Of a stretch of DNA of 64,000 nt, positions 2,977 to 61,975 are shown one piece after another (the first letter of the stretch is position 1; each line of letters starts with the position of its first letter). The stretch is from an uncultured Acidobacteriota bacterium. Its GTDB lineage: Bacteria; Acidobacteriota; Terriglobia; Acidiferrales; UBA7541. The stretch is taken from the NCBI GenBank assembly GCA_963731535.1, contig CAVSWI010000014.1, positions 4,017 through 68,016 of the forward strand, given 5' to 3'. Both the position numbers and the translations under genes were made by a program. The notes beneath the pieces were generated by a model. That model saw only the letters and a program-made list of their open reading frames with translations, searched no databases and had not been told where the DNA came from.

Positions 2977-3808
2977 GAGTCACCTGCACTCTCCCAAGGT
3001 CGTGGTCGGGGCCTGTTGAAACTGCTCCTGCTCCTGCGGAATCTGCGTGCACGTTGGTGGCCGCCGCCAGCTTGCCTCGTTCCAACAGCACAACGCGGCC
3101 GGTTCGCCTTGCCAGCGATAAGTTGTGAGTGGCCAATACCGAGGTTAGATGGTGAGAAGTATGAAGACGCTGCATTAGCTCAAAAACATTTTCGGCGCTG
3201 CGTTCGTCCAAATCCCCGGTAGGTTCATCCGCGAGTAGCAATGCGGGGCCATTCACCAGCGCGCGCGCAATCGCCACGCGCTGCTGCTCGCCTCCGGAAA
3301 GTTCACCGGCACGCTGTTCGGTTCGACTGGCCAACCCCACCTCTGCGAGCCATCCGCCGGCCGTTTGGAGCGCCGGCCCCAACGCCACGCCCCGAACCAG
3401 CAAAGGCATCGCTACATTTTCCGCAGCCGTAAAATCCGGCAGCAGGTGATGACGCTGCCAGACTAGCCCAACGGCGCGATTGCGATACTCCGCCAGCTCC
3501 GCCTCGGAAAAAGACCGGAGCGAATTCCCGCCGAAGTATACTGTACCGCTCGTCGGAGTGTCCAGCGCAGCGAGGATGTGCAGCAAAGTACTTTTGCCCG
3601 TTCCTGACGGACCCACAATCGAAACCATCTCTCCACGCTGAATCGAAAAATCCAACCCGTCGATTGGAACTATTTCTTGCGCACCAGAGCGGAATGATTT
3701 CCGCAGATCGTCGCAGCGCAGAAGTGTCTCGCAGGCAGCCAGGCCATTAGGGGCCCGTTCTTGACCGACCGCGGCACGCGAATTCAACTGCGTCTGCATA
3801 TCTGGCAA
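2969..3808 (-). CDS. lolD: ABC transporter ATP-binding protein, LolD/MacB type
   Basis: Walker A GPSGTGKS, ABC signature LSGGEQQR, Walker B LLLADEPTG. Downstream of a LolC/E-type permease gene. Overlaps the clpC start by 8 nt. Confidence 0.8.
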   Translation of the reverse strand: MPDMQTQLNSRAAVGQERAPNGLAACETLLRCDDLRKSFRSGAQEIVPIDGLDFSIQRGEMVSIVGPSGTGKSTLLHILAALDTPTSGTVYFGGNSLRSFSEAELAEYRNRAVGLVWQRHHLLPDFTAAENVAMPLLVRGVALGPALQTAGGWLAEVGLASRTEQRAGELSGGEQQRVAIARALVNGPALLLADEPTGDLDERSAENVFELMQRLHTSHHLTSVLATHNLSLARRTGRVVLLERGKLAAATNVHADSAGAGAVSTGPDHDLGRVQVTRV

Positions 3809-31039: not shown

Positions 31040-32185
31040 TCAGTACGCTTTCAGGACCCAAGCGGCGATCACCAGGCGCTGAATTTCGCTGGTGCCTTCG
31101 TAAATTTCCGTGATGCGGGCATCGCGGTAGTTGCGTTCGACGGGATATTCACGGCTGTAGCCGTAGCCGCCGTGGATTTGGATAGCTTTGTGCGCCACGC
31201 GCGTGGACATCTCGCTAGCGAAGAGTTTTGCGATCGACGCTTCCATGGTAAACCGCGCGCCAGAGTCTTGTTTCCAGGCAGCACGACGAGCGAGCAACCG
31301 CGCGGCGTCAATTTCGGTGGCCATGTCGGCAAGCATGAACTGGATGGCCTGAAAATCGGAGATGGGATGACCGAAGGCCTGACGCTGCTGCGCATAGGAT
31401 AGCGCCGCTTCAAATGCGCCTTGCGCAATCCCGGTGGCCTGCGCGGCAATGCCGATGCGGCCACCGTCGAGCGTGGAGAGCGCGACTTTGTAACCTTCTC
31501 CTTCGTTCCCGATGCGATGGCCTACGGGAACTTCGCAATCGGTGAACGAAAGCTCGGTGCAGGCGGTGGCGTTAATGCCGAGTTTTTTTTCCTCTTTGCC
31601 GACGGCAAAACCGCGCGTGCCCTTTTCCACCACGAGCGCGGTAATTCCCTTTTCACCTTTTTCAGGCTGGGTGTTGACGTAAACGATTGCGGCATCGGCG
31701 GCACCACCATTGGTGATCCACGCCTTTGTGCCATTGATTACGTAGGTGTCACCTTTGCGAATGGCTTTGGTGCTGAGAGCGGCCGCGTTGGAGCCCGCTT
31801 GCGGCTCGGTGAGCGCGTAGCACCCGATTTTTTCGCCGCGTGCGAAAGGCACCAGAAATTTCTGCTTTTGTTGGTCGGTGCCAAACCGGAGGATGGGATC
31901 ACAGTACAGCGAATTTTGAACCGACAGGATCACTCCGGTAGAAGCGCAAACGCGTGAGATTTCCTCAATAACGATGGCGTAGCTGACGTGATCCATGCCG
32001 GCGCCGCCGTAATTCTCGGGCACGGCAACGCCGGTAAGTCCCAGTTCAGCGGCTTTCTTGAAATTGTCGCGCGGGAAACGTCCGCTCTCGTCAATTTCCT
32101 TGGCGTGCGGCTTTACTTCCGCTTGCGCAAAATCGCGTACGCTGCGTTGCAGCAGTTGTTGCTCTTCGGTTAGATCCAGATCCAC
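31040..32185 (-). CDS. Acyl-CoA dehydrogenase (short/medium-chain type)
   Basis: 381-aa ORF. CYALTEPQAGSNAA, the FAD/CoA-binding core and C-terminal RITEIYEGTSEIQRLVIA. Confidence 0.9.
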   Translation of the reverse strand: MDLDLTEEQQLLQRSVRDFAQAEVKPHAKEIDESGRFPRDNFKKAAELGLTGVAVPENYGGAGMDHVSYAIVIEEISRVCASTGVILSVQNSLYCDPILRFGTDQQKQKFLVPFARGEKIGCYALTEPQAGSNAAALSTKAIRKGDTYVINGTKAWITNGGAADAAIVYVNTQPEKGEKGITALVVEKGTRGFAVGKEEKKLGINATACTELSFTDCEVPVGHRIGNEGEGYKVALSTLDGGRIGIAAQATGIAQGAFEAALSYAQQRQAFGHPISDFQAIQFMLADMATEIDAARLLARRAAWKQDSGARFTMEASIAKLFASEMSTRVAHKAIQIHGGYGYSREYPVERNYRDARITEIYEGTSEIQRLVIAAWVLKAY

Positions 32186-32261
32186 TGAACGATCCTTATG
32201 GCATGGCGATAACAGCGAATGAAAATTCTAGGCTGCACCGCAGAATTAAGAAAGGGCAATT

Positions 32262-32741
32262 TTATGCCAGGGCTTTGCGGAGCTGTTCGTAGGTGGTGGA
32301 AAGCTCTTCGGGCTCGACGCGAGTCTCACCCACAACGGTCATGAAATTTGCGTCGCCGGACCAGCGCGGAAGGACGTGCAGATGCAAGTGGCCGGTGACG
32401 CCAGCTCCGGCCGCTCGGCCAAGATTCATGCCGAGATTGTAGCCTTGCGGGTGATAGGTGTGTTCCAGAGCGGTGTGCACGCGCTGCGACAGCACCATCA
32501 TTTCGGCGAGGGTGTCCGGGTCGGCAGCGGAAAGATCAGCGACGTGGGCGTAAGGAACGACCATGACATGGCCGGTAGTGTAAGGATAGCGATTGAGGAT
32601 TACGAAATTCTTGGCGCCGCGCAGAACAATCTGAGTCTTTAGGTCATCTCCGGCGGCGATTGCGGCGCAAAAAATACAACCTTCGTCCTTCGACGCGTCG
32701 ACGATATAACGATACCGCCACGGGGTCCACAAATAATCCAT
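32262..32741 (-). CDS. HIT-family nucleotide hydrolase/transferase
   Basis: Histidine triad GHLHLHVLPRW. N-terminal LWTPWRYRYI...CIFC. Confidence 0.85.
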   Translation of the reverse strand: MDYLWTPWRYRYIVDASKDEGCIFCAAIAAGDDLKTQIVLRGAKNFVILNRYPYTTGHVMVVPYAHVADLSAADPDTLAEMMVLSQRVHTALEHTYHPQGYNLGMNLGRAAGAGVTGHLHLHVLPRWSGDANFMTVVGETRVEPEELSTTYEQLRKALA

Positions 32742-32746
32742 TCTGT

Positions 32747-33073
32747 TTAGGCCTGCGCTCCGGGTTCAGACGAGCTTGCCGAAGCGCCGCTGGCTCGCGG
32801 ATGGTTCACGAAATCTTTTAGTTCTTTGCTGGGTTTGAAGAACGGAATTTTCTTCGGCGGAACCTCTACTTTCGCGCCGGTTTTCGGATTACGTCCGGTT
32901 CGGCCGCGGCGTTCGCGGGTGCGAAAACTGCCGAAACCGCGAATCTCAATTTTATCGTCAGACTGCAAAGCCGCAATGATGCTCTCGAAAATTGTCTCGA
33001 CGACTGCCTCCGCCTCTTTGCGAGGCAGTTCGGTGACGCGAGTGACCTCTTCCACGAGGTCAGCCTTCGTCAT
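32747..33073 (-). CDS. HU/IHF-family DNA-binding protein
   Basis: MTKADLVEEV...IEIRGFGSFRTRERRGRTGRNPKTGAKVEVPPKKIPFFKPSKELK. The ORF opens at 33115; ATG 33073 gives the canonical N-terminus. It has a C-terminal Ser/Ala tail. Confidence 0.85.
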   Translation of the reverse strand: MTKADLVEEVTRVTELPRKEAEAVVETIFESIIAALQSDDKIEIRGFGSFRTRERRGRTGRNPKTGAKVEVPPKKIPFFKPSKELKDFVNHPRASGASASSSEPGAQA

Positions 33074-33295
33074 CGTATGATCTTTGTTTTCACGCTCTCC
33101 CGCAGCCTCTGCCATTGGATGAGGCCTCCTTTCGCGATATATGAAGACGCCGAAACATGTGAAGACGTTACGCTATTTACGGGCTGGGGCAACACCGTAG
33201 GTCTTTGCATATCATCAATCTAGCTTAAGGTAAATGATTTTTCCTGCGAAGGAAGGCCTTCCGGAGCCGCCGCCCCCCGGCGCCCAGGAATCCAT

Positions 33296-35368
33296 CTACG
33301 ACGATTGCCGCTTGGCCATTATTGCGTCACCAATTGTGGCGTTGGGTGACGATTTTACCTGCTTGGGCTGCTGCTTGAACGTTTCAATCTCCTGGCGTTC
33401 CACTTGTTTTTGCGCGGCGCGGTAGCTCAAACTGATTTTATGCTGCTCTGGTTCCAGGCGGAGAATCTTGAAGTCGTATTCGCTGCCCGTGTTCAAAACA
33501 GAAGTGATGCGCGCGCCTCTTGCTGGCTTTTGCTTATCGCGGTCCCCTTTTCCTTTACGTTCTTCGATTTCCGAAACGTGGCAGAGACCTTCGATTCCTT
33601 CGGCTAATTCCACAAAGGCGCCGAAATCGGTTGTTCTCGCAACTTTGCCTTTTAAGACGTCGCCGATTTTATGATCTGCAAACCAGTTGGCCCAGATATC
33701 TTTGACCTGCTTGATTCCAAGCGAAAGCCTACGGTTCTGCGAATCAACCTTGAGTACTTTCGCTTCGATGACATCGCCCTTCTTGAATTTTTCGCTGGGA
33801 TGCTTGATGCGCTCGGTCCAGCTAATATCGCTGATGTGAATTAAGCCTTCCATGCCCTCTTCGATTTCAACAAAGGCGCCAAAATCGGCGAGGTTGCGAA
33901 TGCGGCCATTGATGATGGCACCCACCGGATATTTTTCGGCAGCCGCGTCCCAGGGATCTGGCATGGTCTGTTTCAATCCCAGTGAGATGCGGCGCTGGTC
34001 CGTCTTCACTTCGAGTACGGTTACTTCTACTTCGTCTCCCACCTTCACCATTTTCGACGGGTGCTTGGTGCGTTTCGACCAGCTCATCTCGCTGACGTGT
34101 ACCAGGCCTTCGACACCGGGTTCGATCTGCACGAACGCGCCATAGTCGGTGACGCCAACGATTTTTCCCTGGGCTCGCGTACCAACGGCAAAACGCTCGG
34201 GAACAGTCGCCCACGGATCCGGCAAAAGCTGCTTGCGGCCAAGCGAGATGCGCTGTTTGTCCTTATCAAACTTCAAAATTTGCACTTCGATTTCATCGCC
34301 AGGCTTCACAATGGACGAAGGATGCGGCACGCGTCCCCAAACCAAATCGCTGACGTGAAGAAGTCCGTCGATACCGCCGAGATCCACAAACACGCCGTAG
34401 TCTGTTACGTTTTTCACCCGACCGCTGACCACAGAATTTTCCGAGAGAGAAGCCATCAAGGCATCGCGTTTCGATTTCTGCTCTTCTTCCAGGATCGCGC
34501 GACGGCTGACGACAACATTGCCTCGCTTGCGATTCAGTTTTAAAACGCGGACTTCGATATCGCGATCCTTCCAAGTTTCCAAATCGTGCACCGGCCGCAG
34601 TTCGATTTGCGAGGCAGGCAAGAAAGCGCGGACTCCGATGTCCACGACCAGGCCGCCTTTGATGCGCTCGGTTACTTTGCCCGTGATAGTGGCTTGCTCG
34701 CGATAGGATTTCTCGATGCCTTCCCACACGCGCCGGCGATGAGCGCGCACGTGAGACAGCAGAACGTATCCATTCTTCTGCTCGTGCAATCTTTCAACTT
34801 CAATTGTCTGGCCCTTGCCGAACTGGATGGGACTTCCGGAATCGACGAATTCCTGAGCAGGCACCAAACCTTCGAATTTTCCGCCGACGTCCACGATTAC
34901 ACCGAGGTCAGTTACGGCCAAAACGCGCCCGTCGAAAATTTCGCCCTCTGCAATGGCCGGTTCTGGCACGGCGAACTGGTCGAGCAGCTGATCCATGGTT
35001 TCCGAGGATTCGGCCTCCGCAGTTTCGGTCGACTCGCTAGCGAATGTGGGAGCGCTCCCTTTGCTCGTCTCAGAATGATCCGGCGACGGAGATTCCAGAG
35101 CCGCGCCTGCCGAAGATTCAGAATCGTCGCGTTGCGCACCAGACATTTCTTCAGGCGGAACGCTGGTCAGCGGCGAAGCCTCGACACTTTCGGGCGCGCG
35201 AACCACTGCAGTCGCAGCGCCGCTCAAAGAGCTAGAGTTAACGTTAGCGGAAGGAATCTGTGTGGTAGCCTGATCTGATTTCTGATCGCTGGAATTTTCG
35301 CCCGGGACTTCGGTAGTGACAGCTTCCGTTGCGGAAGGTTGGAGATTATTGTCTTGCTCGGCTGACAT
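33296..35368 (-). CDS. rpsA: 30S ribosomal protein S1 with an N-terminal extension of about 150 aa
   Basis: Six S1/OB repeats (for example GEIFDGRVLAVTDLGVIVDVGG, VVSGRVKNVTDYGVFVDLGG, RAQGKIVGVTDYGAFVQIEPG, IINGRIRNLADFGAFVEIEEG, VLKGKVARTTDFGAFVELAEG). They are preceded by a Ser/Glu/Ala-rich segment. Confidence 0.9.
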   Translation of the reverse strand: MSAEQDNNLQPSATEAVTTEVPGENSSDQKSDQATTQIPSANVNSSSLSGAATAVVRAPESVEASPLTSVPPEEMSGAQRDDSESSAGAALESPSPDHSETSKGSAPTFASESTETAEAESSETMDQLLDQFAVPEPAIAEGEIFDGRVLAVTDLGVIVDVGGKFEGLVPAQEFVDSGSPIQFGKGQTIEVERLHEQKNGYVLLSHVRAHRRRVWEGIEKSYREQATITGKVTERIKGGLVVDIGVRAFLPASQIELRPVHDLETWKDRDIEVRVLKLNRKRGNVVVSRRAILEEEQKSKRDALMASLSENSVVSGRVKNVTDYGVFVDLGGIDGLLHVSDLVWGRVPHPSSIVKPGDEIEVQILKFDKDKQRISLGRKQLLPDPWATVPERFAVGTRAQGKIVGVTDYGAFVQIEPGVEGLVHVSEMSWSKRTKHPSKMVKVGDEVEVTVLEVKTDQRRISLGLKQTMPDPWDAAAEKYPVGAIINGRIRNLADFGAFVEIEEGMEGLIHISDISWTERIKHPSEKFKKGDVIEAKVLKVDSQNRRLSLGIKQVKDIWANWFADHKIGDVLKGKVARTTDFGAFVELAEGIEGLCHVSEIEERKGKGDRDKQKPARGARITSVLNTGSEYDFKILRLEPEQHKISLSYRAAQKQVERQEIETFKQQPKQVKSSPNATIGDAIMAKRQSS

Positions 35369-53084: not shown

Positions 53085-54086
53085 TCAATCGCCGGCTGAC
53101 GCGTGCTTTTGGTACCGAGTCTCTTCCTCCAGACCCTCGCCGAGTAAGCGAGCCAGTTCCAGTGTCGCCTCCATGCAGCGCTTTGAGTGCGCTGTCATTT
53201 GAATGAAACCGTGTGGCAACTCCGGGTAGTGGACATAGGTAATGTCATTGCCATCCTTCGCTAGCTTCTGCGCATAGGCATGGCCAACATCACGCAGCAT
53301 GTCGAAACCGGTGGTGACAAGAATGGCCTTCGGAAGATCGGCATGGCTCGGTGCATTCAAGGGAGTCACATAAGGCTGTGAGTAGTCCGTGCCTTGTGGA
53401 AGCAACGACCACACAAACAACAAAACTCCGGCGGTATCTACATAGCCACCTGAGCGATTCTCAACGCCCGCGCGCGTATTGAACGGCATCGCCGCTTCCG
53501 GGTAGAGCGGCATCTGTAACGCAAGCTTTGGTCCCTTCTCGTCTCTCAACTTTAGCGAGATGGTGCAGGTCATATTGCCGCCTGCGGAATCACCGCTAAG
53601 AGCGATGCGCTTCGGATCGATGCCGCGCTCAGCAGCGTGCTTGAACAACCAACGGACGACAAACTCACCCTCCTCAATCTGGACAGGCCACTGGTACTCC
53701 GGTGCGAGCTTGTAATCGACGGCATACACCTGGGCACCGCTATTCTCGGAGAGCAAGCGCATCGCGGACTCGAACTGGTCGAGTGATCCGACAATGAAGC
53801 CGCCGCCGTGCAGATAAATCATTGCTGCGCCCTTTGCGGGGCCTGGTTTCGATGGATGGTAAACACGCACTGGAATAGTTCCATGTGGTCCTTCGATCGC
53901 GACAAATTCGACTCTGCCGATCGGTGGTTTCACCTTATCGATGAACGCGTCGTGTTCGCGGCGCTGCACGTGTATGGGTAAGTGCGCACCCAGAACGGGG
54001 CCTGTCGGGAGCCATGCCGCAATCTCCGGCTCGAGTTTGGTGCGTTCGACTTGTGCGGGAATTTGAGACTTTGAGTAAATAGGCAT
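53085..54086 (-). CDS. Alpha/beta hydrolase, hormone-sensitive-lipase-type esterase
   Basis: Oxyanion motif HGGGF and nucleophile elbow GDSAGG, with the C-terminal part of the fold carrying H (LPHGF). SD GGAGG lies 7 nt before ATG 54086. Confidence 0.85.
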   Translation of the reverse strand: MPIYSKSQIPAQVERTKLEPEIAAWLPTGPVLGAHLPIHVQRREHDAFIDKVKPPIGRVEFVAIEGPHGTIPVRVYHPSKPGPAKGAAMIYLHGGGFIVGSLDQFESAMRLLSENSGAQVYAVDYKLAPEYQWPVQIEEGEFVVRWLFKHAAERGIDPKRIALSGDSAGGNMTCTISLKLRDEKGPKLALQMPLYPEAAMPFNTRAGVENRSGGYVDTAGVLLFVWSLLPQGTDYSQPYVTPLNAPSHADLPKAILVTTGFDMLRDVGHAYAQKLAKDGNDITYVHYPELPHGFIQMTAHSKRCMEATLELARLLGEGLEEETRYQKHASAGD

Positions 54087-54094
54087 TGATAGGC

Positions 54095-54340
54095 CTCCTT
54101 TGCTAATTTCTCTTTGTTAAAAACAAGAATCTTGATTGGCGAGTCGCACTGCATCACCCAATCGCCATTCAGAAGAGCATTTCATTTGCCGCGACCGCGA
54201 GACTGATCCACTTTCATGAATTCAAAGGATTTGTGAAATCAGACGAGTAGCGAACCACTTAGTGAAACGTGAAATCTCACGTCGAGCCGAGATACGGACG
54301 CGAAATATCGCGTCCGCTACCTTGAAAGGCTTGAACAGAA
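54095..54340 (-). repeat. Copy 1 of the ~250-bp conserved non-coding element (directly upstream of the esterase SD)
   Basis: Homologous to 59085-59346 in the same orientation. Block 54101-54174 against 59092-59165 is 68/74 identical. The strand is assigned from wobble-compatible substitutions (see findings). Confidence 0.8.
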
Positions 54341-54447
54341 GTGTCGAGGACCGAACGTTACGAGTGCCAGCTGGATTTAATCCCAAGCTTCTTGATGGAG
54401 GGGGTTTACCTTGTAATGAAATAATACCTGTCGCCCGGAGCAGCCGC

Positions 54448-56091
54448 TTACCACGGGTGAAAATGGGTGGGGCCGATCTTGGGTCTTATTCGGGTGACGG
54501 CTATCGAGATTAGGGCGACCACGCCTAGCGTCGCCAGGCCGAAGTAGATATCTATGTAGGAGAGCAGCCTGCTCTGGGTGATCACATTATTTTGAAAGAG
54601 CTGCAATGCTCCCAGCGCGGGATCGCTGGCAGCGCCGCCGTTGCGGTGAATCAGATCGGCATATTGCGCGAGGGTGGATCGAGTGTTGGCGTCCAGACGA
54701 TTGGAGATGTCCAAGAGGCGCGAGGAATGCAGCGTCATGCGGCGATCGAACATGACCGTCGCCGCGGTGACTCCAAAAGTGTTCCCGAGCTGGCGGACAA
54801 AGAAGTAAGTGGTGGAAATATCGTTGACGTCGGCTACGGGCGCGTTGGAGGTGACAACGTTGCCGGCAGCGAGGATAACGGGCGCGACGCAAAAACCTTG
54901 CAGGAAAATTGCGGGAGCCAAGACTACGGTGGGAGTGGTGGGCGTCCAGATGTAGAAGATCGTGACATACGTTGCGATCAAAAGCAGCAATCCGATGACA
55001 AGCGTGCGGACCGGCCCCAAGCGGGGAACGAGCACGTGCAAAGTGAGCTGGAGTCCCAACCCAAGGCCGAGCGTGTACATCGAAATAAAACCGCCCGCCT
55101 GCAAGGCGCTGTAATCCTGGACGAAGCGAAGGTATTGCGGGACGACATAAAGCCCGGCACCGAAGAACGCTCCCACGATCATTATCACCAAGAAGAAGGA
55201 GCGCAGGGACGCGTGCCGCGCGATGATGCGCAAATGAAGTACCGGCGATATGTTTTCGGGGCGATAGTCCCACCAGAGAAACGCGATAAAGAAAATGGCA
55301 GCCGCAACCAGTGCGGTAAGAATCCAGTTCGACTGGAGCCACAGATCGCGCTCGCCGCGGCTGATGGCAATCTCCAGGCAGGCCAGCGAGGCGATCAGCA
55401 GAACTGCACCCCACACATCAACCTGACGCTCTTTCTTGCGCTCAAACAAACGACCTGGTGGAATAATTTTCCAGATAAGAAAAGCGCCGATCGCCAGAAA
55501 GGGAAAATCAACCAGGAAAGCATAATTCCAGTGAAAGGTGTCGGTGACCCACCCCATGACGACCGGATACGGGACTTCAAAAGCAGCAAGAACGAGGTAA
55601 AGCCGGGTGACCGCCGCCATCCTCGCTTTCCCGGGAAACAGCACCCCGGAGAGAATGACGACACGCACCAGAAACGCTCCACCACCGAATCCCATAATCA
55701 AGCGTGAAGCCAGCAGCTGCGCGAGGCTACCCGTGCTCAGCACGCAGCCCATCGCACCCGTAGCATAGATCGCGATGCTTAACAGCAAGTGGCGCCTGGT
55801 GCCAATGACGCGAGTCATCCAAGCCGCCATTGCAATTGAGCAGAGGTAGCCCACATTATAAAGAATGATCACCCAGCTGATTTGATCGGAGCTGGCGCCT
55901 ACGTTGCCCTGCATGTCCGGGAGGAACACGTTGATGGAGAGGCGGTTGGAGATTTCAATGGCGGCAACCATGCCAACGGTCAGGAGCATGGCCATCCGGC
56001 GCCCGTAAGACACGCCCGACAGTATGCTGCTGAGAAACCGCTCCTCTTCGAGTTCCCAGGATTCTGGGGGGCTGCTACTTAGATAGGACAT
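54448..56091 (-). CDS. MFS drug-efflux transporter, EmrB/DHA2 (14-TMS) type
   Basis: 547-aa ORF with about 14 hydrophobic segments. Follows the HlyD-type and TolC-type genes in one operon. Confidence 0.85.
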   Translation of the reverse strand: MSYLSSSPPESWELEEERFLSSILSGVSYGRRMAMLLTVGMVAAIEISNRLSINVFLPDMQGNVGASSDQISWVIILYNVGYLCSIAMAAWMTRVIGTRRHLLLSIAIYATGAMGCVLSTGSLAQLLASRLIMGFGGGAFLVRVVILSGVLFPGKARMAAVTRLYLVLAAFEVPYPVVMGWVTDTFHWNYAFLVDFPFLAIGAFLIWKIIPPGRLFERKKERQVDVWGAVLLIASLACLEIAISRGERDLWLQSNWILTALVAAAIFFIAFLWWDYRPENISPVLHLRIIARHASLRSFFLVIMIVGAFFGAGLYVVPQYLRFVQDYSALQAGGFISMYTLGLGLGLQLTLHVLVPRLGPVRTLVIGLLLLIATYVTIFYIWTPTTPTVVLAPAIFLQGFCVAPVILAAGNVVTSNAPVADVNDISTTYFFVRQLGNTFGVTAATVMFDRRMTLHSSRLLDISNRLDANTRSTLAQYADLIHRNGGAASDPALGALQLFQNNVITQSRLLSYIDIYFGLATLGVVALISIAVTRIRPKIGPTHFHPW

Positions 56092-56106
56092 TGCGCCTCT
56101 TGCCAG

Positions 56107-57423
56107 TCAGCGAGTGTAAATGGTCGCTTCCACATTCATGCCGGGCCGCAGCACGAGATTCGGATTCTTGTTTGGCTTGACCAGAATTTTCACCGGAATG
56201 CGCTGCACGACTTTGATGAAATTTCCGGTCGCGTTTTGGGGCGGCAGCAACGCTTGCCGCGAGCCCGCCGCTCCGGCGATAGAATCTACCACGCCTTCGA
56301 ACTCTTGGCGGTACGTGTCCACGTGGATGCGAACTCTCTGGCCGCGTGCGACGTGGGCCATCTGAGTCTCCTTGAAGTTCGCGGTGACGTACACTTGATC
56401 GAGGGGCACGATGGTGAAAAGCAATTGCCCCGGCGAAACGTACTGCCCCAGGTCCACGGACTTCTGCGTGACTTGCCCGGTGATCGGCGCGGTAATGTGC
56501 GTGTAGGCGAGATTGAGCTCGGCCTGTTGTAGCGCGGCTTTGGCTCGCTCGACGGCGGCGAGCGCCGATTTATAAGTTGCTTCGGCGATGGGCACCTGTT
56601 GCTCGCGCGCTTTGGTCTCCATGAATTGAGACTCCGAGCGCGACACCCGCGCCTGGGCGGAACGTGCATTCGCTCGCGCAATCAGCACGGCTTGTTGCGC
56701 AGCGGAAAGCTGTTGTTCGGCTGCGGCCAGGTCGCTTTTGGCCACGCGCGCGGCGGCTTCGACGGCATCGAATTGATATTTGGAGACGTCGTCAGTGCCG
56801 AGCAGCGGCGTGTAGCGAGCCAGATCGGCCTGAGCGCGATCGTTGGTGGCGCGTTTTGCAGCTACGTTGGCCTCCGCGACCTGAAGATTTGCACTGGCGG
56901 ACTGTTCGAGTTGTGCCTGAGAGCTCGCATAGTCAGCGGCGTCGGATTCCTTCTGATGGACGGCTCCGCTGGTGCTGTGGGTTGTGGTTTCGCGCGTCAA
57001 GCCAATCTGGATTTTCGCGGAATTTGCCTGGGCCTCCGCGAAATCGAGATTGGCTTTGGCCTGCTCTACCTCGGCTTCATAGGTGCGCGGGTCAATCTGC
57101 ACCAGGAGGTCGCCTTCCTTCACGGGCGTATTGTCGTCAATATAAAGGTTAACGACATAGCCCGGAACCTGCGGCGCCATGGCGGTGATATGGCAATCCA
57201 CCTGAGCGTCGTCCGTCGAAACGCGGCCCGTGAACACGTACCACGCAATTGCGAGCAAGAGCAGGACTCCGACGATCGCGCCCTTCACGAAGGGACTCAG
57301 ACCTCGAAACCAGCGGCTCAATGAAAAAGGAGCCGGCGACGGTTGCGCCGGAGGCGGCTGCGGAGTTTCAGGCGACGCGGCCGCGCTGGGCGGTGAAGTT
57401 GGCATTGGAGGAGTGGAACTCAT
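56107..57423 (-). CDS. HlyD/EmrA-family membrane fusion protein
   Basis: N-terminal Pro-rich cytoplasmic tail, one TM, long Ala/Gln-rich coiled coil, and lipoyl/beta-barrel segments (GYVVNLYIDDNTPVKEGDLLVQID, GQVTQKSVDLGQYVSPGQLLFTIVP). Confidence 0.85.
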   Translation of the reverse strand: MSSTPPMPTSPPSAAASPETPQPPPAQPSPAPFSLSRWFRGLSPFVKGAIVGVLLLLAIAWYVFTGRVSTDDAQVDCHITAMAPQVPGYVVNLYIDDNTPVKEGDLLVQIDPRTYEAEVEQAKANLDFAEAQANSAKIQIGLTRETTTHSTSGAVHQKESDAADYASSQAQLEQSASANLQVAEANVAAKRATNDRAQADLARYTPLLGTDDVSKYQFDAVEAAARVAKSDLAAAEQQLSAAQQAVLIARANARSAQARVSRSESQFMETKAREQQVPIAEATYKSALAAVERAKAALQQAELNLAYTHITAPITGQVTQKSVDLGQYVSPGQLLFTIVPLDQVYVTANFKETQMAHVARGQRVRIHVDTYRQEFEGVVDSIAGAAGSRQALLPPQNATGNFIKVVQRIPVKILVKPNKNPNLVLRPGMNVEATIYTR

Positions 57424-57436
57424 AATCTCGTTTCTT

Positions 57437-58777
57437 TTACTTCGTGTACATCGCTTCTATCTGGCCTGTAGCGTGGGCAAGAGCTGCGCGAGACAGATTG
57501 AATTGATACAAAGCCCCAATTCGATTGTCGCTGGCGCGCGCCAAGGCGTCTTGGGCGGTGACGACTTCCACGTTTGTGGTGACGCCCGCTTGAAAACGCC
57601 GCTGTGCTTGGGCCACTTCTTCCTCCGCCAGTTGGTAGCCTAGATTCGCTACCTCCACCGAATTCCGCGCCGCAGCCAGTTCATCGAGAGCGGACTTTAC
57701 ATCATTCACGATTTGCGCTTCAACTTGGCGCCGAACTTCCGCGATATGTTGTTCTTCCAGTCTTGCGTGCGCTTCTTCCGCGCGGATTCGCCCGCTTGTG
57801 AAGAGTGGAAATTGCAGCGAGATTTCGTAGGTGTAGGCCGGAATCCCGTTGTCGAAACGGGAGCCCTGGTAATACCAGAATCCCGAGAAGTCCAATTGTG
57901 GAAGGCGTTGCTCGCGAGCCGAATCGGTCGTCAACTTGGCGATGCGTTGCTGGGAATTCAGCGATCGAATCTCCGGTCGCGAGCTCAATGCCTGATTGAG
58001 CAGCGCCCCTTTTTCCAACACGGGAAGATCATAAAAGTCCAAGCGGTCGGTCACTTCCAGATCCTGGTCGCGAGGCAGATCGAGGAGTTCCGCCAATCCG
58101 TACTTGGTAGTATGAGTCAGTGTTTCCGCGTCGATCAGATTCTGCCGCTCGTTCTGCAATTCGACGTTCGCTCGCACCGTGTCGATATTCAAACCGATCC
58201 CTGTTTTCTGGAGTTCGGTAGCTTGTTCGTAAAGTCGTTGAGCAAGAACGACGCGCGCATTCGCGGCGTCGCGAGTTGCCAGCGCTCGTAGAACCAGCAG
58301 ATATTGGTCCACTACCGCGTTGACTACCGTTTCGCGCGTGGTTTGTTCGTCTGCGCGCGCTTGCCTTGTTCCTTCCCGCCCGATCTGGTATCCCCGAATC
58401 TGCGGCAAATTCAGAATCGTCTGCGAAAAAGTGGGACCAGCTTCGATGAACTGAAAAGGCCCGGCCTCCGTTCGCTTCTCCGACCGCTCAATGCTCTGAA
58501 AATTGTACTGGTTCACTGATCCGGAAGCCGCCATGCTGGCCTGCGGAAGCAGCGTTGCGCGCGCGATCTGGCTATTGCGATCGCTTTCGGAAATCAGCAG
58601 TTGGGCGATGATGCGCTGCGGATTTTGCTTTAGCGCGAGTTGCACCGCTTGCTTCAATGTCAGTTGCAGCACACCCGGTGGCGCCGCCGGGACTTGCTGC
58701 GCGTATGAATCAAGTGGAAACGATACCTGCAGAACCAAAAGAAGCAGCACGGCTATTCGCCGGAAACTCGCGGCCAC
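57437..58777 (-). CDS. TolC-family outer membrane efflux protein
   Basis: Two OEP repeats and a signal peptide (AASFRRIAVLLLLVLQVSFPLDSYAQQ) when started at GTG 58777, with GGAGG 7 nt upstream. The ORF track opens at TTG 58816. Confidence 0.85.
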   Translation of the reverse strand: MAASFRRIAVLLLLVLQVSFPLDSYAQQVPAAPPGVLQLTLKQAVQLALKQNPQRIIAQLLISESDRNSQIARATLLPQASMAASGSVNQYNFQSIERSEKRTEAGPFQFIEAGPTFSQTILNLPQIRGYQIGREGTRQARADEQTTRETVVNAVVDQYLLVLRALATRDAANARVVLAQRLYEQATELQKTGIGLNIDTVRANVELQNERQNLIDAETLTHTTKYGLAELLDLPRDQDLEVTDRLDFYDLPVLEKGALLNQALSSRPEIRSLNSQQRIAKLTTDSAREQRLPQLDFSGFWYYQGSRFDNGIPAYTYEISLQFPLFTSGRIRAEEAHARLEEQHIAEVRRQVEAQIVNDVKSALDELAAARNSVEVANLGYQLAEEEVAQAQRRFQAGVTTNVEVVTAQDALARASDNRIGALYQFNLSRAALAHATGQIEAMYTK

Positions 58778-58882
58778 GGAGGAACCTCCATACAGAAAAA
58801 AAGGAGTCGAGAACAAGCATTATAAGGGAAAGCCAGTCGAGGTAAATACGAACACACATGATCTCCTTTTTCTTGGCGGTCT

Positions 58883-58912
58883 GTCAGGTAGTACTGACGC
58901 GGCCGAAGCCGC
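58883..58912 (-). other. Two adjacent leader hairpins, one with a UUCG tetraloop
   Basis: Minus sense: GCGGC-UUCG-GCCGC (58899-58912), immediately followed by GUCAG-UACUAC-CUGAC (58883-58898). About 105-135 nt upstream of the TolC-like start. Confidence 0.4.
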
Positions 58913-59084
58913 TGCCTTGACGCGGTCCAGCAGCCGGTAGTACGTGTCCGCGAATGGGAAGATGATTTTTCGGTGGGTGTCGTTGAAAAAAAGTTGGCGG
59001 CAACGGGTTCCGTACGGGCAGATGCGACGCACCCCTCGCGCGCTTCAGCAACTGCAACGCCGGTCCAAACGGCGCGACCGAATC

Positions 59085-59346
59085 TCCTTTTTGCTAACTT
59101 CTGTTTGTTAAAAACAAGAATCTTAATTGGCGAGTCGCATTGCATCACCCGATCGCCATTTAGAACGGCAATTCACCCGCTACGACCGCCGCGAGTGGGA
59201 CGCTGATCCACCCTCACGAATTCAAAGGGTTTACAGAAATTAGGCAAGCACCGAACCAGTTGGCGGAATGTCAAAATTTGAGCGCTAGGCGAAATATCGA
59301 CACGAAATACCACGTCCGCTGGTTCGAATATCGGAAAGGACAGAAT
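59085..59346 (-). repeat. Copy 2 of the ~250-bp conserved non-coding element (divergent region between the efflux operon and the ECF sigma gene)
   Basis: See copy 1. Same orientation and a 68/74 identical core. Confidence 0.8.
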
Positions 59347-59409
59347 GTAAATGTGATGCATCTTCCATTCCACCACCAACGGCGCGCCCGTTTCTTGGCA
59401 CTTGGGCCT

Positions 59410-59425
59410 TGGCACGCCAATTGCT
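59410..59425 (+). promoter_or_regulatory. Sigma-54 (RpoN) promoter TGGCAC-N5-TTGCT
   Basis: TGGCACGCCAATTGCT has GG (59411-59412) and GC (59423-59424) separated by exactly 10 nt. It lies 36 nt upstream of ATG 59461 of the ECF sigma gene. SD GAGGAGG at 59444-59450. Confidence 0.7.
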
Positions 59426-59460
59426 TGTTTTCGGGACTGACCCGAGGAGGCGTAGTGATC

Positions 59461-60066
59461 ATGGAACGATTTCCCATAAGCGGGTCACAAAAACACTCCG
59501 ACGCCGCGTTGGTAGCAGCTATAAAGCGTGGAGACGCGCAGGCTTTTGAGAAACTGGCTTTACGTTACAAACAGAGAGTCTTTGCAGTGGAATATCGGAT
59601 AACGAAGAACCGTGAGGATGCCGAAGATGTGGTGCAGCAGTGCTTTTACAAGGTTTATCTTCATCTCGATGACTTTCAAGAAAGATCCCTGTTCTCCACT
59701 TGGTTGATACGCATCGCCGTGAATGAATCGCTCATGGTGCTGCGTCGTACGCGGAAAATTCTGGAAGTCTTCCCAAAGAGTTCGGACGATGTTGAGAACT
59801 CGGTCTCCAAGATATTTGTTGACCGGGCCCCGAATCCAGAAGAGAGCTATCTGCGGCGAGAGCGTATCGAAGTGTTGAGGGAAGCGATCACTCGCCTCGG
59901 TCCAATAATTCGAAGAACGATCTTAGCCCGCTACATGGACGAACGCTCCGTGGAGGAAACGGCTCACACTCTGAGTGCTTCGATCGCCGCGGTTAAATCA
60001 CGTCTTTCTCGGGGTCGGCAGGAGTTAAGCGGAGAAGTGGATCTTGCGCTCTTACAAAGGTCGTAA
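59461..60066 (+). CDS. ECF-type RNA polymerase sigma factor
   Basis: Region 2 (RYKQRVFAVEYRITKNREDAEDVVQQCFYKVY...STWLIRIAVNESL) and region 4 (RRTILARYMDERSVEETAHTLSASIAAVKSRLSRGRQEL). ATG 59461 (or GTG 59455) within ORF 59260-60066. Confidence 0.85.
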   Translation: MERFPISGSQKHSDAALVAAIKRGDAQAFEKLALRYKQRVFAVEYRITKNREDAEDVVQQCFYKVYLHLDDFQERSLFSTWLIRIAVNESLMVLRRTRKILEVFPKSSDDVENSVSKIFVDRAPNPEESYLRRERIEVLREAITRLGPIIRRTILARYMDERSVEETAHTLSASIAAVKSRLSRGRQELSGEVDLALLQRS

Positions 60067-60171: not shown

Positions 60172-60756
60172 ATGAAAAGCTTACGAATTCTAACTTCGCT
60201 TTGCGTAATGTTGATGGCGTCCCCGTTGTTCGCACAGACTATCAAGGTCAACTGGAGCCAGACCGCCCCATTTCCAAGTTATGAGACCTACGCTTGGAAG
60301 ATCGCCCCGCGTCAGGCTAACTCTTTTTACACAAGTTGGGTAAAGGCCGATGTTGATGCACGACTCAGTGAGAAAGGACTCACCTTGGCCTCGGGAAAGC
60401 AAGTACCCGATCTTTACGTTACTTTTCACATCCAGACCCAAGAGCTACTCGACGCAACGACAACCGATGACGGATTCGGACCAGGTTGGGGTTGGGGTGG
60501 TGGTCTCTGGGGGGTTTATGGAGGCTGGGGTGGATGGGGCGGTTGGGAAGGAGGCGATTTCTCGGACACAGCGATTACCACAGAACAACCTCGCACAATG
60601 GGAATACTTACCGTCGATTTGTACGATGTCGCCCAGAAGCATCTCGTGTGGCGTGGACAAGCTACCGTAGACAGCGTATCAAACTCTCAAAAAGGCGATG
60701 AAAAACAGACGGAAAAATCAGTGGACAAGATGTTCAAGAAATATCCTCCTAAATAG
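60172..60756 (+). CDS. Secreted DUF4136-like protein with a Gly/Trp-rich insert
   Basis: Signal peptide (MLMASPLFAQT). The flanks resemble DUF4136 (TYAWK...VDARLSEKGL...DLYVTFH...GILTVDLYDVAQKHLVWRGQA). The insert is GFGPGWGWGGGLWGVYGGWGGWGGWEGG. Confidence 0.65.
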   Translation: MKSLRILTSLCVMLMASPLFAQTIKVNWSQTAPFPSYETYAWKIAPRQANSFYTSWVKADVDARLSEKGLTLASGKQVPDLYVTFHIQTQELLDATTTDDGFGPGWGWGGGLWGVYGGWGGWGGWEGGDFSDTAITTEQPRTMGILTVDLYDVAQKHLVWRGQATVDSVSNSQKGDEKQTEKSVDKMFKKYPPK

Positions 60757-60856
60757 TTGTCTTCGTACAGTCCGCTTCCACGGCTACCGCAAAATACGGA
60801 TGCTGATCCGATTCTGTGAACTACAAGAATTTGAACAGAGAAGTCGGTGTTGGTTG

Positions 60857-61975
60857 TTAAGAGCGCCACATTGATTTAATGCCGAGCTTCTTCATGCGAC
60901 TCCGAAGAGTTGACGCTGGCAATCCCAAGACTTCTGCGGCACCGCCCTTGCCTGCAATCAATCCGTCAGTCATCTGCACAACTTCCGTGATGTGTTCTCT
61001 TTCGGCTTCCGCCATAGTGCGCACTCTTCCCGCGCCAAAGTCGCGACTGGGATTTATCGAGCTTGAAGAATCGTTGGGATCTCCACCTAGCGGTGAGCTT
61101 CTTGTGGGAATGGGCTTGGGCGGCGAACCACTGAGCACAGCGCCAGTGGACAGAATCACCGAGCGTTCAATCAGATTTTGGAGCTCCCGGACATTTCCCG
61201 GCCATGAATGCCGCACAAGTGCCGCCATGAATTGCTCAGAAATAGCCGTAATTCGCTTGTGCAATCGAGCAGCGTAATCCATTGCAAAGTGCTGGACTAA
61301 CAAACGGATATCTTCGCGGCGTTCACGCAGTCGAGGGAGTTCAATGGGGAACACGCTGAGTCTATAGAAGAGATCAGAGCGGAATTGATGTTTGTCTACC
61401 ATCTCAGCGAGATTGCGATTTGTAGCGCAGATCACTCGCACATTGGTGTGAATTGTGGCAGTACCGCCTAGTCGCTCGAACTGTTTTTCCTGCACGACGC
61501 GAAGAAGCTTTGGCTGCAACTCCAACGGAAGGTCGCCGATCTCATCCAAGAACAGGGTACCTCGGTTAGCGCGCTCGAAGCGCCCAATACTGCGTGTTAC
61601 CGCTCCGGTATAGGCGCCACGCTCGTGACCAAACAACTCGCTTTCGAGCAAACCGGCCGGAATCGTGGCGCAATTCACTTTTACGAACGGTCCGTTCGAT
61701 CGATCGCTGTACTTGTGAATGGCTTCCGCAATGAGTTCCTTACCGGTTCCCGTCTCTCCGTTGATTAACACCGTGGCATCGGTCGGTGCCACGGCCCGCG
61801 CCAAGCCAAGTACGCGCCGGAGAGCGGCGCTCTTACCGACAATCCGGGGTAGTCGCCTATCGGAGAGTTCGTTGTCGTCGCGCGCAGTCAATGCTGACGT
61901 CACGTCCCCGATCTCAAAGAGCGCATTATGGTTAACTGCGAGTCCTTCATTTGCCCAGCTCATTTGTACCGACAT
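60857..61975 (-). CDS. Sigma-54-dependent transcriptional activator (bEBP) without an N-terminal sensory domain
   Basis: The AAA+ core starts about aa 55 (IVGKSAALRRVL). Walker A GETGTGKE, sigma-54 contact loop GAYTGA (GAFTGA variant), Walker B LFLDEIG and a C-terminal Fis-type HTH (AAEVLGLPASTLRSRMKKLGI). Confidence 0.88.
   Translation of the reverse strand: MSVQMSWANEGLAVNHNALFEIGDVTSALTARDDNELSDRRLPRIVGKSAALRRVLGLARAVAPTDATVLINGETGTGKELIAEAIHKYSDRSNGPFVKVNCATIPAGLLESELFGHERGAYTGAVTRSIGRFERANRGTLFLDEIGDLPLELQPKLLRVVQEKQFERLGGTATIHTNVRVICATNRNLAEMVDKHQFRSDLFYRLSVFPIELPRLRERREDIRLLVQHFAMDYAARLHKRITAISEQFMAALVRHSWPGNVRELQNLIERSVILSTGAVLSGSPPKPIPTRSSPLGGDPNDSSSSINPSRDFGAGRVRTMAEAEREHITEVVQMTDGLIAGKGGAAEVLGLPASTLRSRMKKLGIKSMWRS

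Follow-up and report, generated by a model that had tools for sequence, protein, structure and literature searches.

A repeated intergenic element in an Acidobacteriota bacterium, probably the upstream control region of a sigma-54-dependent ECF sigma factor gene

In this report, we ask what a non-coding element that occurs twice in a 64,000-nucleotide stretch of DNA from an uncultured Acidobacteriota bacterium (contig CAVSWI010000014.1 of assembly GCA_963731535.1; this whole stretch is called the window) is doing in its two places. Copy 1 lies between the stop codon of a major facilitator superfamily (MFS) transporter gene and the start of an esterase gene, and copy 2 lies between a TolC-like gene and a divergent gene for an extracytoplasmic function (ECF) sigma factor. 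A sequence-only reading of the window had considered a cis-regulatory leader or riboswitch-like RNA, an operator or promoter block for one regulator, such as a nearby bacterial enhancer-binding protein (bEBP), and a miniature inverted-repeat transposable element (MITE). We will argue that the repeat is very probably a duplicated ECF-upstream regulatory region, copy 1 being the relic of a second module. The whole package, in which copy 2 is the native and copy 1 the leftover upstream control region of a sigma-54-dependent ECF gene, and in which a bEBP acts through enhancer sites, we consider probable, with less confidence. The operator or promoter block is the earlier proposal that comes closest to the evidence, although the sigma-54 promoter, its loss from copy 1 and the bEBP remnant beside that copy had not been seen.

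The two copies are homologous in the same orientation and are about 80% identical overall by pairwise alignment. The duplication, claimed at first from the letters, is borne out by this alignment, by the direct-repeat families within the two copies (D2, of 100 nt, at 86% identity and D4, of 45 nt, at 80%) and by a two-copy nhmmer profile, which matches the window solely at these two places (E 4e-91 and 2e-83). The ungapped identity of 68 positions out of 74 between 54101-54174 and 59092-59165 is reproduced exactly by our recount, and a 46-nt purine/pyrimidine pattern is found in the window at both copies only, for 0 expected. The motifs quoted in the sequence-only reading, that is, the two palindromes that we call P2 (Table 1), TGGCGA-N19-TCGCCA (54137-54167) and TTGTTAAAAACAA (54114-54126), do sit where it had placed them.

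Along the minus strand, copy 2 is followed by an unassigned stretch of about 190 nt, a sigma-70-like promoter, the TolC, HlyD and MFS genes, copy 1, the esterase gene and a gene for a thiamine pyrophosphate (TPP) enzyme. On the plus strand, the ECF gene and a DUF4136 lipoprotein gene diverge from copy 2, and the bEBP gene is convergent with both. The -24/-12 promoter of the ECF gene is the sole zero-mismatch match to TGGCAC-N5-TTGC in the window, and this sigma-54 promoter (TGGYAYGCYAATTGC) is kept in all ten ECF-linked sequences. The bEBP matches Pfam Sigma54_activat (4.8e-72) and HTH_8, and it is devoid of an N-terminal sensory domain according to Pfam, NCBIfam and its translation. A Pfam scan brought up no recognisable anti-sigma domain beside the ECF gene, whose downstream partner is the DUF4136 lipoprotein gene.

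Comparison with other genomes assigns the element to one of its neighbours. A scan anchored on the MFS protein gave 53 acidobacterial loci, most of them with the TolC-HlyD-MFS operon, and a scan anchored on the ECF protein gave 38 further loci, which together with L045 make 39 loci that collapse to 9 distinct haplotypes. Among the 53 MFS-anchored loci, the ECF-DUF4136 pair is present only in L045, and so is the element, while in all 38 ECF-anchored loci the element core stands immediately 5' of the ECF gene. Every ECF ortholog that was retrieved has the core on its upstream side (nhmmer E 1e-20 to 1e-39; 125-149 bits with a covariance model), and the part of the element conserved in 9 of 9 haplotypes is the 5' portion of about 130-200 nt (in the minus sense), right upstream of the ECF -24/-12 promoter. 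On the far side, one finds a divergent TolC operon (the window and L045), a divergent cytochrome oxidase (cox) operon (L061, L072-77, L095-97 and L102-104) or a co-directional OEP-YtcA-AaeA-AaeB-like operon with the end of its last gene at the element (L062-65, L078-94 and L098-101). As the far-side gene varies while the ECF side is constant, the conserved unit belongs to the ECF gene and not to the minus-strand genes. The ECF-DUF4136 module, with or without the bEBP gene, is conserved in Acidobacteriota (Ca. Acidiferrales and Sulfotelmatobacter-like metagenome-assembled genomes).

The conserved core carries two palindromes, P1 and P2, and their placement is fixed: the centre of P2 is at -126 to -128 and that of P1 at -157 to -160 from the predicted sigma-54 start, with a mutual spacing of 31 nt, in 10 of 10 sequences. 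One 18-bp palindrome motif makes up both P1 (AACGTGAAATCTCACGTC) and P2 (GACGCGAAATATCGCGTC) in the A-type alleles, which comprise copy 1 and the cox-linked loci; within the window, this motif is confined to the element (6 strand-hits for 0.3 expected). This position, spacing and pairing fit what is expected for the upstream activating sequences of a bEBP, and we lean, on the sequence, towards P1 and P2 being specifically putative enhancer sites for such a protein. In this scheme, the sensor-less bEBP of the module (PspF- or HrpR/S-like) would bind P2 (some 127 bp upstream of the start) and P1 (some 159 bp upstream), would loop to the -24/-12 promoter and would remodel the sigma-54 RNA polymerase, allowing the ECF gene to be transcribed. 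Copy 2 would be the control region in its native place, back-to-back with a TolC-HlyD-MFS operon having its own sigma-70-like promoter further downstream. This last promoter is conserved in the two closest TolC orthologs (L045, 7251-7291; L002, 7246-7288).

Part of this architecture extends to two ECF paralogs (L105 and L107), 68% identical in protein and set in unrelated neighbourhoods, which also have a sigma-54 promoter, at about -66 from the ECF ATG. Their upstream regions have several blocks in common with the element, namely GTTT(T)C.T.GCG just 5' of the -24 box, GCATCTTCCA near -75 and GACG.RAT..C.A.AC at the position of P2; the block at the P2 position includes GACGAAAT..CGACACG and is without the hairpin-forming right arm. 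This suggests that a whole acidobacterial ECF clade, orthologs and at least two 68%-identical paralogs included, is sigma-54-dependent in a HrpL-like manner.

Further upstream in L105 (about 3650-3710, -310 to -265 from the predicted start), there are 4 CGACAC/GTGTCG hexamers arranged as inverted repeats within 50 nt, for a background of 0.2 per 400 nt. These hexamers may be sites for an activator, akin to the left half of P2.

How a second copy came to stand before an esterase gene can be read from its flank. Neither a sigma-54 promoter nor an ECF gene is found at copy 1. With the cox-linked alleles of L061 and L095, its core shares 92-93% identity, as compared with 72% with copy 2, which for its part is nearest to the B-type alleles (83%) and mosaic near the promoter. 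Since the core of copy 1 is closer to the cox-linked alleles than to copy 2, the copies are different alleles of one regulatory region, and not the outcome of a recent local duplication. The homology of copy 1 to the ECF-upstream region ends at about 54338, and some 20 nt further on there starts a match to the 3' end of the bEBP gene: by blastn, 54357-54397 matches 60856-60896 of the window (80%, E 1e-5) as well as L062 and L063 (85%, E 1e-6). Beyond this, the segment from about 54390 to 54447 is native MFS 3' flank, common to L013 and L035. The order of element, deletion and bEBP 3' end is that of an intact module minus the promoter, the ECF gene and the DUF4136 gene, with a truncated bEBP gene.

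Copy 1 would then be a leftover from a second module, which belonged to another allelic type. A first deletion event would have taken its sigma-54 promoter, its ECF gene and its DUF4136 gene, another would have left just the last 14 codons of the second bEBP gene, and what was left, the enhancer core and a 3' core that includes a Shine-Dalgarno sequence, would now be fused to the front of the esterase gene; we infer the order of these rearrangements. At present, copy 1 may be no more than a transcribed spacer between cistrons, or it may still place the esterase under the control of a bEBP. Two candidate minus-strand sigma-54 promoters at the upstream edges of the copies were rejected: at copy 1, CTGGCAC-TCGTA-ACGT is the bEBP coding remnant (..SWHS and stop), and at copy 2, TGGAAT-GGAAG-ATGCA is not conserved in the B-type loci.

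Table 1. Features of the two copies and of their surroundings (positions are those of the window).
Feature	Position	Strand	Description and basis
Copy 2	59085-59346	-	Probable native intergenic control region, between divergent TolC-HlyD-MFS operon and ECF gene; alignments; same orthologous position in L045, L061-L065, L072-L104
Conserved enhancer-like core of copy 2 (P2, P1, GAATTC block)	59201-59332	-	Covariance model 131.9 bits; conserved in 10/10 ECF-linked sequences
P2 of copy 2	59298-59317		CGACACGAAATACCACGTCC; centre about -128 from predicted sigma-54 start
P1 of copy 2	59270-59282		GTCAAAATTTGAG, degenerate; centre about -160; other B-type loci have GTCAATATTTGAC here
3' core of copy 2	59085-59180	-	Same Shine-Dalgarno-like AAAAAGGAG; no open reading frame follows
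Sigma-54 -24/-12 promoter	59410-59424	+	TGGCACGCCAATTGC; perfect; 37 nt 5' of ECF ATG
ECF sigma factor gene	59461-60066	+	Pfam Sigma70_r2 and Sigma70_r4_2
DUF4136 lipoprotein gene	60172-60756	+	Constant partner of the ECF gene; Pfam and synteny
bEBP (sigma-54 activator) gene	60857-61975	-	AAA+ at residues 45-212, GAYTGA loop, C-terminal HTH_8
Spacer between copy 2 and TolC promoter	58893-59084	-	About 190 nt; no DNA or protein homolog, no Pfam match
TolC operon promoter	58819-58846	-	TTTACC-16-TATAAT; sigma-70-like
bEBP gene 3'-end remnant, between MFS stop and copy 1	54358-54399	-	14 codons; ..SIKKLGIKSSWHS and stop, vs ..RMKKLGIKSMWRS and stop in the intact gene
Copy 1	54095-54340	-	Probable orphan control region, between MFS stop and esterase start
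Conserved core of copy 1	54201-54330	-	Covariance model 129.5 bits
P2 of copy 1	54296-54315		GGACGCGAAATATCGCGTCC; perfect 8+8
P1 of copy 1	54266-54283		AACGTGAAATCTCACGTC; fits the 18-bp motif of P2; 31 bp from P2
3' core of copy 1	54095-54185	-	TGGCGA-N19-TCGCCA, UUGUU/AACAA hairpin, esterase Shine-Dalgarno AAAGGAGG
Esterase (Abhydrolase_3) gene	53085-54086	-	Directly downstream of copy 1; Pfam

Several findings weigh against the reading of the element as an enhancer region for a bEBP. A-type and B-type loci share an identical C-terminal helix-turn-helix (HTH) region of the bEBP but have different P1 sequences (ACGTGA..TCACGT vs GTCAA..TTGAC), and two palindrome pairs show double changes from G-C to C-G. 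A change of P1 under a constant HTH, along with double pair changes, is more typical of selection on base-pairing than of a fixed protein-DNA code. In terms of strand, RNAalifold favours the minus sense (-18.4, z -5.5) over the plus sense (-12.2, z -2.8), and all departures of P2 from perfect pairing can be read as G·U on the minus strand alone, where its cells amount to 11 G·U and 1 mismatch, as compared with 12 mismatches on the plus strand. The G·U pattern that had been pointed out in this first helix is thus real, and it persists in the homologs. The bEBP gene is adjacent to the module in the window, L061-L063, L072-74, L088-90, L093, L096 and L098, but it is not adjacent in L045 and the L078-type loci. 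Finally, the 3' core, of about 90 nt, is the best-conserved part between the copies of the window, and the enhancer model gives no explanation for it. The residual structure signal and this window-specific 3' core are the only parts left outside the enhancer reading.

In L078-L087 and L045, the ECF-DUF4136 pair is followed by a DUF4845 gene and a class A penicillin-binding protein gene in place of the bEBP gene, while the sigma-54 promoter, P1 and P2 are kept; the activator must be encoded elsewhere. The idea that the HTH of the bEBP had co-evolved with the variants of the palindromes was rejected, as the HTH region is the same in A-type and B-type loci. Just past the bEBP gene of the module, there is a phage-type integrase gene in L072 (8414-9649) and a rve transposase gene in L088 (8364-9512); the surroundings of the ECF-DUF4136-bEBP module are variable and possibly mobile.

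Between the two copies, the 3' cores share 90% identity, as compared with 72% for the enhancer cores, and their identity to any other homolog is 43% at most. In the L061-type loci, the 3' core is diverged and lacks about 47 nt, and in L045 the enhancer core passes straight to the TolC promoter. Such a mosaic identity, in copies of different allelic types, suggests gene conversion or allelic replacement by recombination. The identity of the 3' cores may come from gene conversion, or else from a function such as that of a promoter or leader for the divergent gene. One can picture a copy 1 that is still alive, in which the enhancer core and the 3' core would form a working bEBP- or ECF-controlled promoter and leader of the esterase, copy 2 having formerly done the same for a lost gene. 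This picture is compatible with the origin of the element that we have proposed, but we regard it as unlikely. It would account for a 3' core that is 90% conserved in both copies and whose end, in copy 1, is a canonical Shine-Dalgarno sequence at 7 nt from the esterase ATG. At a distance of about 130-160 nt from P1 and P2, the minus strand of the 3' core also shows a GG-N10-GC arrangement (TGGGTGATGCAGTGC), and bEBP sites can serve divergent sigma-54 promoters, as for zraP/zraSR and hyc/hyp. However, this candidate -24/-12 element fits only about 6 of 11 consensus positions, both between-copy substitutions within the arrangement hit consensus positions, about 2 arrangements of this kind are expected by chance per 250 bp on both strands, and there is no match to TGGCAC-N5-TTGC with up to one mismatch in the 3' core. 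No sigma-70-like promoter is predicted in the 3' core either, and promoter searches for sigma-70-like or ECF-type promoters gave nothing convincing within the element. A recent gene conversion could equally give the high identity of the 3' cores, which are absent or rearranged in all other genomes. Degenerate patterns of the 3' core had 0 matches in the GTDB representative genomes and the JGI metagenomes, neither of which holds the host genome.

The 190-225-nt spacer that follows copy 2 was also examined as a decayed esterase or other gene, and this was rejected (no Pfam match, BLASTP E 0.49, a DNA alignment no better than shuffles and no tblastx match). An exact look-up of the esterase protein returned no record.

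The structure signal leads to a second alternative, which we hold to be rather improbable, namely that the core encodes a structured minus-sense RNA, which would run divergently from the ECF promoter region and would consist of hairpins at P2 and P1 and of a longer helix that closes the GAATTC block. Such an RNA would be a small RNA, the 5' leader of the far-side gene or a short promoter-antisense transcript ending at P2. In the 10-sequence alignment A7, 93.4% of the cells are paired and six pairs have changes on both sides; the covariation score is 0.332 as compared with 0.229 for shuffles (none of the 500 reaches 0.332) and lies far above slid controls, and 33 cells are G·U on the minus strand for 2 on the plus strand. 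Furthermore, the P2 hairpin with its ATATTTCGTC tail, as in L062 (1985-2004, minus strand), qualifies as an intrinsic terminator by simple rules, in the B-type alleles only. Together with the change of P1 under an identical HTH region, the structure signal and the G·U bias are real points in favour of a hairpin at the level of the nucleic acid. However, the shuffle control ignores relatedness, and the sequences comprise only two clades (A and B) plus mosaics, so that each double change is about one event. The strand-neutral palindromes alone give about 5-6 events for the minus strand and 1 for the plus strand, which is not significant, and helices 3 and 4 are biased to the minus strand because they were predicted there. 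The minimum free energies of the single sequences are weak (minus-sense z-scores of -0.84 and -1.55 for the two copies), no minus-strand sigma-70-like promoter is predicted in the window, L061 or L062, and a transcript continuing in the minus sense would, in 4 haplotypes (25 loci), run antisense into the 3' end of another gene. The 68%-identical paralogs keep sequence blocks and not the P2 hairpin. The second candidate helix of the sequence-only reading does not hold in 3 of the 10 sequences, one pair being broken in each of L064, L098 and L045. A search with Rfam 15 returned a tRNA only for the whole window at gathering thresholds, and nothing relevant, hence no family, for 53900-59600 at E<=1. 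Still somewhat more doubtful, in our opinion, is the form of this alternative in which the 130-nt core would be a strand-specific structured RNA within the enhancer, with a P2 hairpin of 8 bp, a P1 hairpin of 5-6 bp and a closing helix, transcribed divergently from sigma-54-dependent ECF promoters of Ca. Acidiferrales-like Acidobacteriota and belonging to an undescribed small or promoter-antisense RNA family, with copy 1 as a second, retained gene for this RNA before the esterase.

As for a leader or riboswitch-like RNA in particular, this proposal is not supported, and the element is probably not of this kind. In 4 of the 9 non-window haplotypes (the L062, L064, L065 and L098 types, 25 loci), there is no minus-sense gene downstream of the element. 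The element was rejected as a leader of the TolC-HlyD-MFS genes: it is absent from about 45 other syntenic operons, and in the window and L045 the TolC promoter is downstream of it, so the element is not in the TolC 5' untranslated region. It was likewise rejected as a native leader of the esterase, since the DNA upstream of esterase homologs (88-93% protein identity, in three other contexts) is unrelated and lacks the element; the weak fold z-scores and the lack of an Rfam match point the same way.

In L055-L059, a tandem array of CACAACTT-like 8-mers (CAACTTCACAACTTCACAACTT...) lies about 100 nt upstream of an esterase homolog (92% identical), directly 5' of its Shine-Dalgarno sequence.

The last alternative, a MITE-like mobile repeat that landed twice, had been put forward on a weak terminal inverted repeat (TTCTNTT...AACAGAA) and has for it the two copies 5 kb apart, but it can be dismissed as highly improbable: instead of the many copies anticipated for a MITE, there are no further copies in the window, no dispersed ones in 104 related loci (about 1.4 Mb, profile search) or in 0.9 Mb searched with the covariance model (which, built from 10 sequences, recovered only its training copies and their duplicates), and 0 matches in the GTDB representative genome and JGI metagenome scans; there are no target-site duplications, every homolog is at the same position relative to one gene, with copy 1 as the only other place, and the homology boundaries vary between loci, so that the element is not a discrete unit.

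The element had also been described as non-coding, and this is upheld, because indels of 1 nt and 9 nt separate the copies and no open reading frame (ORF) is kept across 11 distinct homologs. The two ORFs reported over it (53930-54157 and 58753-59148) do share the start VMQCDSPIKILVFNK and then diverge, as had been said, but they are not the only ones to cross the element: further mechanical ORFs are found at 54262-54513 and 58973-59206 on the plus strand and at 59173-59415 and 59271-59477 on the minus strand. A micro-ORF (MKVDQSRGRGK and stop), hinted at by the 9-nt indel, was rejected, as it lacks a Shine-Dalgarno sequence and the homologs do not conserve it. Elsewhere in the window (31980-34911), there are direct repeats with a spacing of 258-261 nt (families D1 and D3), probably a repeated protein domain in a large gene.

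The locus can finally be set beside known systems. Like cis-regulatory leader RNAs and riboswitches, the element is non-coding and conserved, with hairpins that show some compensatory changes, and copy 1 stands directly before a Shine-Dalgarno sequence; unlike them (Rfam with its acidobacterial motifs included), it has no Rfam match, no consistent minus-sense gene downstream and no single-sequence thermodynamic signal. A false lead is thereby removed: a hairpin-rich duplicated block near a Shine-Dalgarno sequence resembled a new leader RNA, and synteny assigns it to the gene on the other side. The orphan copy 1 offers a small and clean example of the decay of a module into enhancer fragments, which can pass for new regulatory elements or be exapted as such.

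A closer likeness is found in the sites of PspF at the pspA promoter and of NtrC at glnAp2, where two palindromic sites about three helical turns apart lie some 100-160 bp upstream of a sigma-54 promoter. The layout of P1 and P2 is like that of these upstream activating sequences, and the activator consists of AAA+ and HTH only, as does PspF (TIGR02974 2.9e-87, below the cut-off). The palindrome GACRYGRNATAYCRYGTC is, however, unrelated to known PspF or NtrC sites, no integration host factor (IHF) site was identified as compared with these systems, and, unlike in PspF and NtrC sites, P1 is swapped for another palindrome in the B-type alleles despite an identical HTH region.

The sigma-54/ECF/DUF4136 module belongs to an already known regulatory type, for which HrpRS, a sigma-54 promoter and hrpL constitute the documented precedent of an ECF gene driven by sensor-less bEBPs (PMC8999054). 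As with HrpR/HrpS and hrpL (ECF32) in Pseudomonas syringae, the ECF gene is on a -24/-12 promoter, the activating bEBP has no N-terminal sensory domain and a divergent operon shares the intergenic region (PMC8999054). This likeness to the HrpL type rests on the sigma-54/bEBP control and the lack of an adjacent anti-sigma gene, and not on the ECF group, for a module known here from its sequence. Unlike the Pseudomonas system, ours is found in the Acidobacteriota phylum and has one bEBP gene and not a pair, its ECF gene comes without exception with a DUF4136 lipoprotein gene, and its neighbours are efflux or cytochrome oxidase operons and not type III secretion genes. What the locus points to is thus a HrpRS/HrpL-like cascade in a poorly studied soil phylum, often beside efflux or respiratory operons, whose apparently clade-wide sigma-54 promoters, shared upstream architecture and sensor-less activator make the regulon experimentally approachable.

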